In this document: one piece after another, positions 2,045-13,275 of the stretch
Layout of the letters: each line of letters starts with the position of its first letter
Position numbering within the stretch: position 1 is the first letter of the stretch
IMG/VR virus record: IMGVR_UViG_2667527582_000004
Length of the DNA: 13,399 nucleotides
DNA from: a virus
Taxonomy: Duplodnaviria; Heunggongvirae; Uroviricota; Caudoviricetes
Strand: one strand, 5' to 3'
Position numbers and translations under genes: made by a program
Notes under the pieces: generated by a model
Told to the model about the DNA's origin: nothing
Seen by the model: the letters and a program-made list of their open reading frames with translations, nothing else
The model's database searches: none

Positions 2045-2117
2045 GGCTACGTAGCTCAGTTGGTTAGAGCACATCACTCATAATGATGGGGTCACAGGTT
2101 CGAATCCNNNNNNNNNN
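2045..2117 (+). tRNA. metT: tRNA-Met (elongator, anticodon CAU), 3' acceptor end obscured by N-run
   Basis: GGCTACGTAGCTCAGTTGGTTAGAGCACATCACTCATAATGATGGGGTCACAGGTTCGAATCC matches elongator tRNA-Met; anticodon CAT at 2079-2081 inside the loop CTCATAA; D-arm and T-arm (GGTTCGAATCC) are intact. The 3' acceptor strand falls in the N-run; the bases after the Ns are TTAT rather than the expected ACCA. Position directly downstream of asnB matches metT in the E. coli K-12 gene order as I recall it. Confidence 0.88.
2108..2117. other. run of 10 N (sequence gap, probable contig join)
   Basis: Ten consecutive n; the flanks cannot be joined into a complete tRNA 3' end. Confidence 0.9.
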
Positions 2118-2245
2118 TTATGTCTATCATCTCACCGTAGTTGCCCGCATCGTTCGCCAACTCCACTGAAACCCTTGCTGCGTCTGGAATGTCGTTTTCC
2201 ATGCTTTTGATGACCGTTCATCACCCTTCCAGTTTTTCGCGGTTT

Positions 2246-2300
2246 TGTGTATTGCAATGTGTATTGCAAATTGGCGATCGGGATGGGTGTGTATTGCAAA
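2246..2300. repeat. three direct copies of 12-mer TGTGTATTGCAA upstream of int (candidate integrase arm-type or operator sites)
   Basis: Perfect copies at 2246-2257 and 2258-2269 (tandem) and 2289-2300. Variant copies of the same 12-mer recur at 12938-12961. Confidence 0.6.
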
Positions 2301-2317
2301 TCTCTTGAGGGCTTTTA

Positions 2318-3559
2318 ATGGCTATTGAAAACAAACTCAGTGACAAACTGTTAAAGAGTCTTGTCGGAAAACGGCAGGACAAACAAAAAACAATAGCGGA
2401 TGGGCGCGGGTTGTCTGTGCGTGTAAGCATGGTTGGGGGGATCAGCTTTGTTTTTTACTATCGTCTTGGTGGCAGGGAATCCCCTCCGGTATGGCTTACA
2501 CTTGGTCGCTATCCTGACATGTCTCTTGCAACGGCCAGGCGCATGCGTGATCAGTGCCGTGAATGGCTGGCTGAAAATCTGGACCCCCGCAGGCAAATAA
2601 AACTTGCTGCCGAAAAAACTATGCAACCAGTGACCGTAAGGGATGCGCTGTTTTACTGGTACGACAATCACGCCACAACAGCCAGAAAAGAGCATGAATA
2701 TTTAATAAAACGATTTGAAAAGCATATCTTCCCCTATATCGGTGATATGGCTATAGAACAGTGCAAATTACACACATGGCTTACCGTCTTTGACAGGATC
2801 AAAAAAAATGCGCCTGTTATGTCTGGTGCAATTTTTCTTGATATCAAACAGGCGTTGCGTTTTTGTCGCGTCAGGCAATACATCGCGTGCGATCCCTTTG
2901 GAGATATTAACGTAAGTTATGTCGGGCGCTCATCCGGTATAAGGGATCGCGTTCTTAATATCAATGAAACCGCTGATGTATGGTCTTATGCTTACGGTAA
3001 TAATTTGCTAACTCTGTCATCAATATATAACCGAAGAATAATGGTTATCTGCCTGGTGTTTGGTTGCCGACAGCAGGAGGCGAGGCTATCCACCTGGGAC
3101 GAATGGGATTTAAAAAACTGGGTATGGACAGTCCCAAAAGAGCACAGCAAAAACAAGGAGGCTATAGTAAGGCCTGTTCCTGACGGAATAAAACAATGGA
3201 TCGTTAATCTTTACGCAGAAACAAAAAATCGCGGTTATGTTGTCGGTTGTGCTTTGCAAAGGGCGACAATAACAGGGGCTGCAAACAGAATATGCAGGCG
3301 TCTTGGTCATGATACTAATGGCTTGTGGTGCATACATGATTTCAGGCGCACATTTTCCACTACGCTTAATGATATGGGGGCGGATCCTTATATTGTCGAA
3401 CTTCTTTTAGGTCATAAAGTGAAAGGGGTTGCTGGTGTTTACAATAAAAGCAGGCATATAAAGAAAAAACTTGAGGTGCTTAATATGTGGGTTAATTACC
3501 TTAATACGATAGCAGGATTTAACAACAACGTTATCGAGCTTAATAAAGAGGTGGTGTGA
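2318..3559 (+). CDS. int: tyrosine recombinase / integrase, P4 family
   Basis: 413 aa; N-terminal arm-binding region resembling P4 Int (GRGLSVRV...FVFYYRL...LGRYPDMSLATAR); C-terminal catalytic region with HDFRRTF and LLGH...GVY motifs (His-x-x-Arg and catalytic Tyr). RBS GAGGG upstream of the ATG. Confidence 0.93.
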   Translation: MAIENKLSDKLLKSLVGKRQDKQKTIADGRGLSVRVSMVGGISFVFYYRLGGRESPPVWLTLGRYPDMSLATARRMRDQCREWLAENLDPRRQIKLAAEKTMQPVTVRDALFYWYDNHATTARKEHEYLIKRFEKHIFPYIGDMAIEQCKLHTWLTVFDRIKKNAPVMSGAIFLDIKQALRFCRVRQYIACDPFGDINVSYVGRSSGIRDRVLNINETADVWSYAYGNNLLTLSSIYNRRIMVICLVFGCRQQEARLSTWDEWDLKNWVWTVPKEHSKNKEAIVRPVPDGIKQWIVNLYAETKNRGYVVGCALQRATITGAANRICRRLGHDTNGLWCIHDFRRTFSTTLNDMGADPYIVELLLGHKVKGVAGVYNKSRHIKKKLEVLNMWVNYLNTIAGFNNNVIELNKEVV

Positions 3560-3560
3560 T

Positions 3561-3818
3561 ATGGCAATTTATTCTCTTGTTGATGAAAACGATTTGCGCA
3601 CAATGAAGGACATTGATCGGTTCATTCGTGAAAAAGAGTGCATAGCACTTACCACGCTGGCAAACTCAACACGCTGGAAAATGGAGCAGGCAGGTAAATT
3701 CCCGCGACGTATCAAGATCGGTGAACGTGCTGCAGGGTATCGACTTTCAGAGGTTCAGGCATGGATCCGTGGTGAGTGGCATCCTGGATGGAAACCTGGA
3801 AAAACAAAACAGCAATAA
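3561..3818 (+). CDS. alpA: AlpA-family HTH protein (excisionase / transcriptional regulator)
   Basis: 85 aa; HTH segment CIALTTLANSTRWKMEQAGKFPRRIKIGERAAGYRLSEVQAWI is typical of the AlpA / Vis family. Start 2 nt after the int stop with RBS AAAGAGGTGG. Confidence 0.82.
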   Translation: MAIYSLVDENDLRTMKDIDRFIREKECIALTTLANSTRWKMEQAGKFPRRIKIGERAAGYRLSEVQAWIRGEWHPGWKPGKTKQQ

Positions 3819-3830
3819 CCAGTAAATAAT

Positions 3831-3854
3831 GCCCCTCATCACGAGGGGTTTTTT
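3831..3854 (+). terminator. rho-independent terminator after int-alpA
   Basis: Stem CCCCTC / GAGGGG with loop ATCAC, followed by TTTTTTG. Confidence 0.75.
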
Positions 3855-3874
3855 GTCTATAAGGTAAAAACGCG

Positions 3875-11860: not shown

Positions 11861-11942
11861 TGCTGTCCGATTATCTGATGGAAACTGCCGGAAACGTACC
11901 GGATAAGTTGCAGCCGAATAAAGATAAGTAACGTAGTACGCT

Positions 11943-12224
11943 ATGACTGAATCCGAAATACTGCGATTAATCCGCCGTGCTTGTGGAATCAGCAAGCAGC
12001 ATGACGAACAGGCCACGCAGCCGGACAGCGTGACCGCAGATAATTATGTGCGTGTAGTGGCTGAGGTGATGCGCCGTGACGGTATTGAGCTTAACGGCGT
12101 GGATATGCGCAACATACGAACAAGAGTCCTTGAGTTGCTGGCATATCGTCGCCGTTCTCAACAACGGAGGGAGAGCGCGAAAAATACTTACCAGTGGAAG
12201 AAGCCGGAACGATTGCGGCGGTAA
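11943..12224 (+). CDS. hypothetical protein (93 aa), basic C-terminus
   Basis: ORF begins 12 nt after the -1-frame Nu1-like stop; weak RBS; no family recognised; it sits where lambda would carry gene A. Confidence 0.4.
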   Translation: MTESEILRLIRRACGISKQHDEQATQPDSVTADNYVRVVAEVMRRDGIELNGVDMRNIRTRVLELLAYRRRSQQRRESAKNTYQWKKPERLRR

Positions 12225-12472
12225 CTTGCTGATATTCCCGATAACGCAAAATTGCGCTGGCTGACTTGTTGCATTGCAAAAAGTTAAGCAGGAAGGCACG
12301 GCCTGTAAGATGGGATGCAGTAAGTAGTTCAAGGCTACCTTGTGCTGGCACGCACAGTTAAGCCGTCGGTGCTGGATATCCCCCACTGGGGGAAAAGCTG
12401 GCTACATCCCTCACATCTGAGGACTGATAACGCGACATTGCGCTGGCTGGCAAAGTGCAAAATTGCACGATG

Positions 12473-12607
12473 GCCTAACCCATTGATTATTTCGAAAACC
12501 TGCAATGCAGGAAATCGGGGAAGTAAGCCTAAGCTATTGATTGTTTCGAAAACCCCCATTGGGGGATGTCGGGAAAGTAAGACTAACCCATTGATTCTTC
12601 CACAATC
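12473..12607. repeat. 2.5 copies of a 54-bp tandem repeat (27-bp conserved half plus 27-bp palindrome-bearing half)
   Basis: Conserved halves GCCTAACCCATTGATTATTTCGAAAAC (12473-12499), GCCTAAGCTATTGATTGTTTCGAAAAC (12527-12553), GACTAACCCATTGATTCTTCCACAATC (12581-12607); the intervening halves carry CTGCAATGCAG and CCCCCATTGGGGG and share the tail TCGGGRAAGTAA. Confidence 0.65.
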
Positions 12608-12937
12608 CTCAATTTGAGGAGGCCGGAACGTCTACATAGCTGCATCGCCGTAATGATGATTCAGCCCACCAGCCAAATCAGCACAGCAACGACAGAATAG
12701 CCCGACACAGAAAAACCACGAATATGGGGTTTTTGTTATGACATGGTCATGATGACCACTCATACAAAACAGGTAAAGCCCACCAGCCTGATTAAAGGTT
12801 AACCGGAAAAAAGCCAGGTATCCAATCTCGATATGGGGATCCCTATATCGACATTAACGCCCACTAAAACTGTGCATATATGCATAGAAAAAGCATCCAC
12901 CAGCTTTATGACGGATGCCGCTCATCTTATAAATAAT

Positions 12938-12961
12938 CGTGTATTGCAGTGTGTATTGCGA
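12938..12961. repeat. two tandem variant copies of the TGTGTATTGCAA 12-mer (candidate arm-type sites at the other end of the element)
   Basis: CGTGTATTGCAG (12938-12949) and TGTGTATTGCGA (12950-12961), in the same orientation as the three copies at 2246-2300. Confidence 0.5.
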
Positions 12962-13039
12962 CTCCTTTAAACGATAGGTCTGAGCATTCGTAATGTACTG
13001 TTTTTAAATTTTATTTTTTCCTGTCTTTTCATAAAGGCG

Positions 13040-13265
13040 ATGTATGCCGCCACCATTGAGAGTGAGCTGGATACGCAGTCAGCGATGGATTTTATTCTGG
13101 GCGCGAACAGTCAGGAGCAGCGGGAAAGGCTGACCGGCTGGATTGGTGAAATTGCCGCGTATTACGCCGCAGCGCCGGTCCGGCTGGGAGGCGCAAAAGT
13201 ACCGCACCTGATGCCGGGGGACTCACTGAACCTGCAGACGGCTCAGGACACGGATAACGGCTACT
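13040..13265 (+). CDS. hypothetical protein, 3'-truncated by N-run
   Basis: ATG at 13040 with RBS AAAGG; 75 codons of protein-like composition (MYAATIESELDTQSAMDFILGANSQEQRERLTGWIGEIAAYYAAAPVRLGG...) running into the N-run; no family recognised. Confidence 0.4.
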
Positions 13266-13275
13266 NNNNNNNNNN
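13266..13275. other. run of 10 N (sequence gap, probable contig join)
   Basis: Ten consecutive n separating an unrelated plus-strand ORF from a minus-strand gad gene fragment. Confidence 0.9.

Follow-up and report, generated by a model that had tools for sequence, protein, structure and literature searches.

Gene content of the window

The window (the whole stretch of 13,399 nt that was analysed) contains two runs of Ns, each of 10, and no N elsewhere, and these divide it into three pieces. Piece 1 (1-2107) carries asnB and the first 63 of the 77 nt of the tRNA-Met gene metT, piece 2 (2118-13265) carries an 11-kb phage satellite followed by 224 nt of a lambda-family portal gene (3' part), and piece 3 (13276-13399) carries codons 57-98 of gadB on the minus strand. 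The features are as follows:

1-1665, + strand: asnB (asparagine synthase B), complete, at the start of piece 1 (100% identity to K-12 and to many closed genomes)
2045-2107, + strand: tRNA-Met gene metT, first 63 of 77 nt, at the end of piece 1 (K-12 annotation, L003:3545-3621)
2108-2117, no strand: 10-N spacer 1, read as an artificial join of unrelated contigs
2118-13041, + strand: helper-embedded PICI (HE-PICI) satellite, running from the base that follows the lost attL block through the last base of the attR block (collinear closed genomes; published att ends)
2246-2268, + strand: doubled arm motif tgTGTATTGCaatgTGTATTGCa, downstream attP arm, with an extra half-site at 2288-2299
2318-3559, + strand: tyrosine integrase (Pfam Arm-DNA-bind_3 and Phage_integrase, above the curated cut-offs)
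3561-3818, + strand: AlpA-family regulator or excisionase-like protein (Pfam Phage_AlpA)
3875-4453, + strand: Bro-N domain protein (Pfam Bro-N)
6385-8139, + strand: primase/replication protein (Pfam D5_N, DUF5906; RefSeq "DNA primase family protein")
8736-9185, + strand: SSB-family protein (Pfam SSB; the exact-sequence look-up of this protein led to the source record)
9402-10442, + strand: lambda gpE-family major capsid protein of the satellite (Pfam Phage_cap_E, 1e-41)
10452-10793, + strand: lambda gpD-family head decoration protein (Pfam HDPD)
11213-11278, + strand: cos-like block (66 nt, 95% identity to the helper prophage region upstream of nohD)
11390-11860, + strand: Nu1-like small terminase, 156 aa (Pfam Phage_Nu1, profile positions 79-158 only)
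12938-12960, + strand: doubled arm motif cgTGTATTGCagtgTGTATTGCg, upstream attP arm (motif search)
13034-13046, + strand: attR core, identity block AAGGCGAT plus GTATG, single copy in the window (published block "aaggcgat")
13040-13265, + strand: portal gene, 3' part from Met277 onwards (gpB-like protein of 533 aa), at the end of piece 2 (Pfam Phage_portal_2, profile positions 238-305)
13266-13275, no strand: 10-N spacer 2, read as an artificial join
13276-13399, - strand: gadB nt 171-294 (codons 57-98), at the start of piece 3, continuing into pqqL-yddB in the source record

The Phage_int_M match of the integrase falls slightly under its cut-off (26.1 bits vs 27). An exact lambda cosN 12-mer, GGGCGGCGACCT, lies at 11245-11256 inside the cos-like block. 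The small terminase is shorter than its counterpart in closed genomes (156 vs 180 aa), as one nucleotide is deleted from an A-run near 11801-11806.

Attachment site and host gene of the satellite

Satellites of this kind have been catalogued under the designation B:Phage_portal_2:241, e.g., Eco10269.11.B_Phage_portal_2_241 (Tommasini, Mageeney and Williams 2023, NAR Genom Bioinform, PMC10111431), whose identity block "aaggcgat" falls at about position 241 of Phage_portal_2. The block is found here at 13034-13041 with flanks identical to the published ones, and the portal fragment that starts there aligns from profile position 238 of the current Pfam model, a few positions from 241. Window positions 2118-2216 and 12985-13137 are letter-identical to the published attL and attR, respectively. 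The arm motif TGTATTGC occurs seven times in the window, against 0.71 occurrences expected. When the attP centre is set at 13040, the middle of AAGGCGAT[G/T]TATG (a placement of our own choice), the first core of the downstream arm begins 132 nt past it (published, 132 +/- 2) and the last core of the upstream arm ends 81 nt ahead of it (published, 81 +/- 2); as in the published elements, two co-oriented copies of the doubled motif tgTGTATTGCantgTGTATTGCa thus flank the attP centre. The att-arm identity to catalogued members implies that the integrase would belong to the single HE-PICI clade related to the 11capE integrase.

Of 5,426 complete E. coli genomes, 64 have the left end of the satellite and 62 the full portal-satellite junction; all 60 of the matches listed overlap an annotated portal gene. 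The satellite of piece 2 is collinear with AP045067.1 (99.94%) and CP098192.1 (98.9%), in both of which the prophage portal gene is split, and the order terL-gpW-portalN, satellite, portalC-protease-D-E-FI was observed in two closed genomes and one 26.8-kb Logan contig. When the portal halves are joined at the identity block, they give an open 533-aa Phage_portal_2 protein, the 3' fragment of which is annotated as "phage portal protein, missing N-terminus" in closed genomes. In the complete genomes, among the matches listed, the satellite is located within a lambdoid-prophage portal gene. The window itself carries attR and 224 nt of that gene, and both halves stand in a lambdoid late operon in the closed genomes; the window lacks the attL block and the portal 5' part because the contig ends there. 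Judging from attR and from other assemblies described below, we infer that the real left neighbour in this strain, on the attL side, is the portal 5' part.

From this arrangement, the satellite tyrosine integrase would recombine at AAGGCGAT, near codon 275-277 of a lambda-gpB-type portal gene. The + strand carries int, alpA, the primase gene, and the portal fragment alike, and the satellite is oriented like the late operon of its lambdoid prophage. In the literature, such integration keeps the portal gene from being expressed for as long as the satellite stays in place, and transcription of the helper late genes and helper replication extend into the satellite.

The element shares with the B:Phage_portal_2:241 HE-PICIs its size (~11 kb), identity block, att flanks, doubled TGTATTGC at the published distances, late-gene orientation, and int-alpA-Bro-primase-late-gene layout. 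Nothing of substance differs, apart from the attL block and portal 5' part that the window lacks and the 1-nt terminase deletion relative to closed genomes. The satellite at E:Phage_cap_E:80 also lies inside a late gene of a lambdoid helper, is of similar size, and has its own gpE-family capsid gene, but its target gene and site differ from those of our element, which is in portal gene B. The classical cos-packaged Gram-negative PICIs (e.g., EcCICFT073) have the same int-alpA-replication-packaging order and likewise a lambdoid-helper-derived cos site (with the exact cosN at 11245-11256 in our element), but are located in chromosomal genes apart from the helper, whereas the element in the window is inside the helper portal gene. 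With the capsid-forming PICIs (cf-PICIs, Alqurainy et al.; SatelliteFinder model), the element has in common genes for a small terminase and for a major capsid protein, but it lacks genes of its own for a portal, protease, head-tail connector, or adaptor; its late functions by Pfam on the called genes are only Phage_cap_E, HDPD, and Phage_Nu1, and the portal homology belongs to the helper gene outside the element, so that the cf-PICI label was rejected.

Origin of the two joins

The window is an exact substring, by string match, of NCBI JRSG01000010.1 (GCA_001413685.1), at L009:1266-14664. This is a public draft record in which a 1.85-Mb "contig" consists of pieces strung together with 10-N runs, and every N-run in ten 20-kb loci was exactly 10 N long. 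A literature search for the WGS accessions JRSG, JRSS, JRRM, JRSD, and JRRN found no citing paper. Neither join occurs in any of the 5,426 complete E. coli genomes: metT and the satellite are not joined, the flanks of spacer 1 never coming within 800 nt of each other, and portal and gadB are not joined, the flanks of spacer 2 never being found together. A preliminary description, made from the letters alone, had proposed that the window concatenates non-adjacent pieces; the proposal is upheld by the exact match to the draft record, by the absence of either join from the complete genomes, and by eight discordant assemblies.

These eight assemblies comprise the record of the window (JRSG) and seven with neighbouring accession numbers (JRSS, JRSD, JRSB, JRRN, JRRM, JRSK, and JRRZ). 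The satellite piece is identical in all of them (0 mismatches) and is bounded by 10-N runs in 8 of 8 records, while its chromosomal neighbours differ in each (e.g., glcB and infA, pgsA and dmsC, asnB and gadB, or dadX on one side). In four of the other seven, the piece starts 58-64 nt earlier, with sequence ending in GCCATTGTGAAGGCGAT, which is the portal 5' part.

The joins were also considered as genuine scaffold links supported by read pairs in a rearranged strain that unites asnB-metT, a prophage fragment, and gadB, since some scaffolders do use short fixed N-runs for gaps of unsized length. We regard this as very improbable: a 100% identical piece has eight different neighbour pairs in eight assemblies, and independent rearrangements would not all carry a portal 3' end of 168-232 nt and break off within a few bases of one point. 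Moreover, asnB and gadB are not adjacent in K-12 either; the coordinates in one K-12 record are 3.18 Mb for asnB, 2.31 Mb for gadB, and 0.22 Mb for gadA, in agreement with the earlier remark that gadA/gadB is nowhere near asnB in E. coli.

At the first join, the K-12 match of metT stops at L003:3607, and the Rfam hit at 2052-2110 is to a partial tRNA, spanning positions 8-63 of a 71-position model. ARAGORN reported no tRNA in the window, a false negative due to the truncation of the gene. The missing 3' part of metT is 14 nt (CGTCGTAGCCACCA), vs 10 Ns, and the bases after the N-run, TTATGTCTATC, match neither ACCA nor the downstream spacer TCTTTTTTTGCGG. The preliminary description was therefore right that the run interrupts tRNA-Met and that the ACCA end is not completed. 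It had also called an insertion of the satellite beside tRNA-Met plausible but unproven, and this is refuted. Many PICIs and prophages attach at tRNA genes (general knowledge, stated in the literature as well), and the integrase gene begins 200 nt past the join and is directed away from it, as might be expected if the satellite were truly integrated at or next to metT and the 10 Ns stood for a few unresolved bases. However, the right end of piece 2 is attR with portal sequence rather than a 3' fragment of tRNA-Met, a search of the window with up to 3 mismatches allowed found no further copy of the tRNA-Met 3' end, and metT contains nothing that corresponds to the att core AAGGCGAT. The unmatched flanking bases, the 14 missing bases against 10 Ns, and an adjacency seen in 0 of 5,426 closed genomes rule out tRNA-Met as the attachment site, and the identical pieces of the other seven assemblies have different left neighbours or portal sequence. 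Because of the attR, its portal flank, and the portal-gene location in complete genomes, the tRNA-Met reading, which we find hardly credible, was dropped; the right boundary is a portal gene, and there is no tRNA gene with a direct repeat of its 3' end as in tRNA-integrated islands and PICIs.

The second N-run had been said to part a plus-strand open reading frame from the middle of a minus-strand gadA/gadB coding sequence. This holds, and both sides can now be named: the former is the portal 3' part, and the latter is gadB rather than gadA (2 mismatches vs 8), with pqqL next in the source record. The listed open reading frame at 13040-13399 is a chimera of 119 aa, in which the portal sequence is read through the Ns into antisense gadB.

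The equal length of the two runs would also suit masks over 10 real bases of continuous sequence. The flanking bases at both joins rule this out: ACCA and TCTTTTT would be expected next at run 1, where TTATGTCTATC is observed, and portal sequence beginning GCAGTCACTG at run 2, where TAGGTCGATGG is observed. We give masking next to no probability.

The window shows fixed-length spacers, joins absent from closed genomes, and neighbours inconsistent among assemblies. It resembles N-joined draft WGS pseudo-contigs in its fixed N spacers, repeat-bound piece ends, and discordant neighbours, and no difference from them was seen. It is almost certainly made up of separately assembled contigs, set in no biological order with fixed 10-N spacers between them, the middle contig being a helper-embedded PICI. 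The joins are an artefact of assembly, and the element between them is one already described, since the satellite in the helper portal gene was published in 2023 with near-identical members, and nothing new is learned about mechanism. Taken at face value, the window gives a false attachment site (tRNA-Met), false neighbours (asnB and gadB), and a chimeric 119-aa "gene", and catalogues of satellites or islands built from draft records with hidden N-joins inherit such errors. In the HE-PICI study, truncated contigs or ambiguous bases made 56% of the integrase hits unusable (PMC10111431).

Repeated sequence at the contig ends

The preliminary description placed both breaks in duplicated genes, and our comparison bears this out: metT and metU, 393 nt apart, are identical over all 77 nt, and gadA and gadB are identical between nt 243 and nt 642, piece 3 ending inside this stretch at nt 294. 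Both ends of the middle piece are in repeatable sequence too, i.e., a lambdoid portal gene, which was overlooked; the portal open reading frame had gone unrecognised, and the repeat nature of the other two contig ends was therefore missed. Portal-like DNA is present in 3,213 of the 5,426 complete genomes, in up to 5 places each. Every contig end thus lies in repeated or repeatable sequence: metT/metU for piece 1, the gadA/gadB stretch for piece 3, and on either side of the middle piece the lambdoid portal gene.

At six mappable piece ends, the overhang into the repeat is 51-64 nt: 63 in metT, 51 in gadB, 60 and 57 in the repeat that we take to be IS1, and 58-64 in the portal 5' part. Such overhangs would fit a word size in the 60s and trimming of the ends. 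The portal overhang in the window is asymmetric, with 0 nt on the left and 232 nt on the right beyond the last satellite base, vs 64 and 168 nt in other assemblies of the series. This split is beyond what word size and trimming alone explain, and is only partly explained.

The left contig end is exactly the first satellite-specific base following AAGGCGAT, and the reads therefore supported two continuations at the att core. The assembly graph would have forked at this base, owing either to a second portal-like sequence or to some cells of the culture in which the site was empty. The likely cause is that the genome carries another lambdoid portal gene, one that is uninterrupted. An empty attB (GTGAAGGCGATGTATGCC) in part of the culture, which would mean frequent spontaneous excision without induction, is unlikely; if true, the reactivation of the helper portal gene upon satellite excision could be studied here in a natural setting. 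The right overhang of 168-232 nt argues for the second prophage over the empty attB.

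Pieces of the window and their joins

Two N-runs of 10 N each (2108-2117 and 13266-13275), which are the only ambiguous bases in the whole window, split it into three pieces.

Pieces of the window
1-2107: asnB, then tRNA-Met (metT 5' part); matches K-12 and many further complete E. coli genomes at 100% identity
2118-13265: satellite, then the 3' part of a portal gene
13276-13399, minus strand: gadB nt 171-294

Piece 1 matches K-12 up to nt 63 of metT (77 nt in all); the rest of the gene is CGTCGTAGCCACCA in K-12 and is followed by leuW, glnU, glnW, metU, glnV, glnX, and ubiF. 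ARAGORN reported no tRNA in the window, and Rfam matched a partial tRNA in piece 1 (model positions 8-63 of 71). At the first join 14 metT bases are absent, as against 10 Ns, and the first bases after the N-run, TTATGTCTATC, match neither ACCA, as the preliminary description had remarked, nor the metT downstream spacer. Piece 3 is assigned to gadB because it has 2 mismatches to K-12 gadB versus 8 to gadA, and because pqqL-yddB lies next to it in the source record. The N count, Rfam, and K-12 thus bear out the earlier account of two N-runs, an interrupted tRNA-Met, and a minus-strand gad sequence after the second run. The gad locus was also rightly said to lie far from asnB, since the coordinates in one K-12 record are 3.18 Mb for asnB, 2.31 Mb for gadB, and 0.22 Mb for gadA.

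NCBI record JRSG01000010.1, a 1,852,046-bp WGS "contig" of GCA_001413685.1 with internal N-runs, contains the window without a single letter changed (L009:1266-14664). An exact-sequence look-up with the satellite SSB-family protein (8736-9185) returned ten loci. The middle piece was also found in seven further assemblies with neighbouring accessions (JRSS, JRSD, JRSB, JRRN, JRRM, JRSK, and JRRZ), with 0 mismatches over 11,084-11,148 nt. In every one of the eight records it is flanked on both sides by N-runs, always of exactly 10 N in these loci, and its chromosomal neighbours differ in each (e.g., malate synthase and lactate permease/infA-aat-cydCD; uvrY-uvrC-pgsA/dmsCBA-serS; nagC-nagD-asnB/gadB-pqqL; dadA-dadX/another gene set). 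Eight neighbour pairs around one identical piece with nearly constant end points cannot all be real; the joins come from record building.

The joins were also rebuilt without Ns and searched against 5,426 complete E. coli genomes, using 300 nt each from pieces 1 and 2 for the left join, and 300 nt of piece 2 plus the 124 nt of piece 3 for the right. Both halves of the left join occurred in one place in 0/5,426 genomes, and both halves of the right join occurred together in none of the 5,426. Strain VL7S7 carries asnB-metT at 1.713 Mb and its satellite copy at 1.185 Mb. The eight sets of neighbours and the missing joins strongly support the proposal that the window concatenates non-adjacent pieces; none of the 5,426 closed genomes has the three segments side by side, which would have spoken against it.

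The portal 3' fragment, the 10 Ns, and antisense gadB together read as a complete 119-aa ORF (13040-13399), which the source collection lists as a gene (L009:14305-14664). This ORF is an artefact, and it apparently sets the right edge of the window. In JRRN01000033.1, two tiny pieces of 362 and 471 nt, one of which encodes a lambda FI fragment, lie ahead of the satellite piece (L011 2458-3320), which shows how strongly these assemblies break up the late region of the prophage.

Location of the satellite in a prophage portal gene

Piece 2 aligned end to end with two closed genomes, AP045067.1 (99.94%) and CP098192.1 (98.9%). In both, the satellite locus is inside a DLP12-like lambdoid prophage, in the order nohD(Nu1)-terL-gpW-portal(5' part), satellite from int to terS, and portal(3' part)-S49 protease-D-E-FI-Z-U-V-G; a 26.8-kb Logan contig has the same gene order. 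The junctions are GTGAAGGCGAT|TTATGTCTATC at attL and CATAAAGGCGAT|GTATGCCGCC at attR, and joining the portal halves at the att block gives an open 533-aa Phage_portal_2 protein. Of the 5,426 complete genomes, 64 contain the first 300 nt of the satellite and 62 the full portal-satellite junction; the satellite left end overlaps an annotated portal gene in 60/60 of the matches listed.

Piece 2 itself starts at the first base past the AAGGCGAT block and ends within the portal 3' part, 224 nt beyond attR; the att core has its sole copy in the window at 13034-13046. In four other assemblies the piece has a further 58-64 nt at its start, which are portal 5' sequence up to ...GTGAAGGCGAT. No further copy of the tRNA-Met 3' end lies anywhere in the window. 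Insertion beside tRNA-Met, which the preliminary description had considered plausible, is refuted by the portal-gene location in complete genomes, the ends of piece 2 (attR and the portal 3' part), and the lack of such a copy. The useful outcome is a corrected attachment site, together with a warning on N-joined draft records.

Of the six substitutions versus AP045067.1, only four are in the 11-kb satellite proper; the other two (13219 and 13249) are in the portal gene, within the final 47 nt of piece 2. This pattern fits either portal alleles that vary more than the satellite or portal copies mixed at the contig end.

Repeated sequence at the contig ends

The observation that both breaks fall in duplicated genes held and can be extended to the portal ends. 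The metT and metU genes do not differ over their 77 nt, and piece 1 reaches 63 nt into this repeat; gadA and gadB show zero differences from nt 243 to nt 642, and piece 3 reaches 51 nt in. The overhang of the satellite piece into the portal 5' part is 58-64 nt in the four other assemblies, and portal-like DNA is present in 3,213 of the 5,426 genomes, in up to 5 places per genome. From the metT/metU, gadA/gadB, and portal repeats, all four contig ends therefore lie in repeated or repeatable sequence. Left neighbours in two other assemblies stop 57 and 60 nt into a putative IS1 terminus.

The satellite piece is nearly constant in size (11,142-11,148 nt) in the eight assemblies (L005, L007, and L009-L014), but its frame moves: the left/right portal overhangs are 0/232 (window), 0/230, and 0/228, or 64/168, 62/168, and 58/168. 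Their nearly constant sum is only partly explained. Portal alleles vary near 13102 and 13135 in published attR alignments (PMC10111431); if the genome carried a second such allele, this would explain the long right overhang.

Family membership and proposed mode of life

Helper-embedded PICIs (HE-PICIs) were described by Tommasini, Mageeney and Williams (2023, PMC10111431), who reported 491 satellites at 14 sites in lambda late-gene cognates, in the same orientation as the late genes. For site B:Phage_portal_2:241 the supplementary files give 76 att sequences with the identity block 'aaggcgat'. The doubled motif diagnostic of the family, tgTGTATTGCantgTGTATTGCa, is expected on both sides of the attP centre, 81 +/- 2 nt upstream of it and 132 +/- 2 nt downstream (PMC10111431). 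Window 2118-2216 and 12985-13137 agree letter for letter with the published attL and attR (e.g., those of Eco10269.11). The window has seven copies of TGTATTGC versus 0.71 expected, with doublets at 12938-12960 and 2246-2268, 81 and 132 nt from an attP centre set at 13040. A third, lone half-site (2288-2299) lies 30 nt past the downstream doublet, shortly before the integrase start codon, in addition to the family's two published doublets.

The gene content (integrase, AlpA, Bro-N, DUF4222, D5-type primase, SSB, gpE-family capsid protein, gpD-family decoration protein, a second AlpA-like protein, and Nu1-like small terminase) agrees with the published HE-PICI layout. Judging from these sequence matches, the satellite is of a catalogued kind, near-identical members of which are already published. 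It is not a capsid-forming PICI by the SatelliteFinder definition, because its gene set includes no portal, protease, or connector gene. The ~800 nt that separate attR from the last plausible gene (12225-13030) contain no convincing ORF and no Rfam match at gathering thresholds.

Direct evidence covers the location, att core, arm motifs, orientation, and the portal frame restored on precise excision. On the published model, expression of the interrupted late gene would require excision of the satellite, and the helper's replication and its late transcription would run on into the embedded element (PMC10111431). The exact lambda cosN 12-mer GGGCGGCGACCT at 11245-11256 lies within a 66-nt block (11213-11278), just upstream of the satellite Nu1-like gene, that is 95% identical to the helper cos region upstream of nohD; helper similarity fades ~30 nt past cosN, where cosB would lie. 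Such a block would fit packaging of the cos type by the terminase of the helper. The Nu1-like protein (11390-11860) matches Pfam Phage_Nu1 only over profile positions 79-158 of 164, the C-terminal half, and has no Pfam match to the N-terminal DNA-binding part, which suggests that TerS may be a satellite-specific recognition domain fused to a helper-compatible C-terminal part. A 1-nt deletion in an A-run near 11801-11806 (A5, not A6) leaves the protein at 156 aa here, versus 180 aa in closed genomes; all eight series assemblies share the deletion, which may be either a true frameshift or a sequencing error in the homopolymer.
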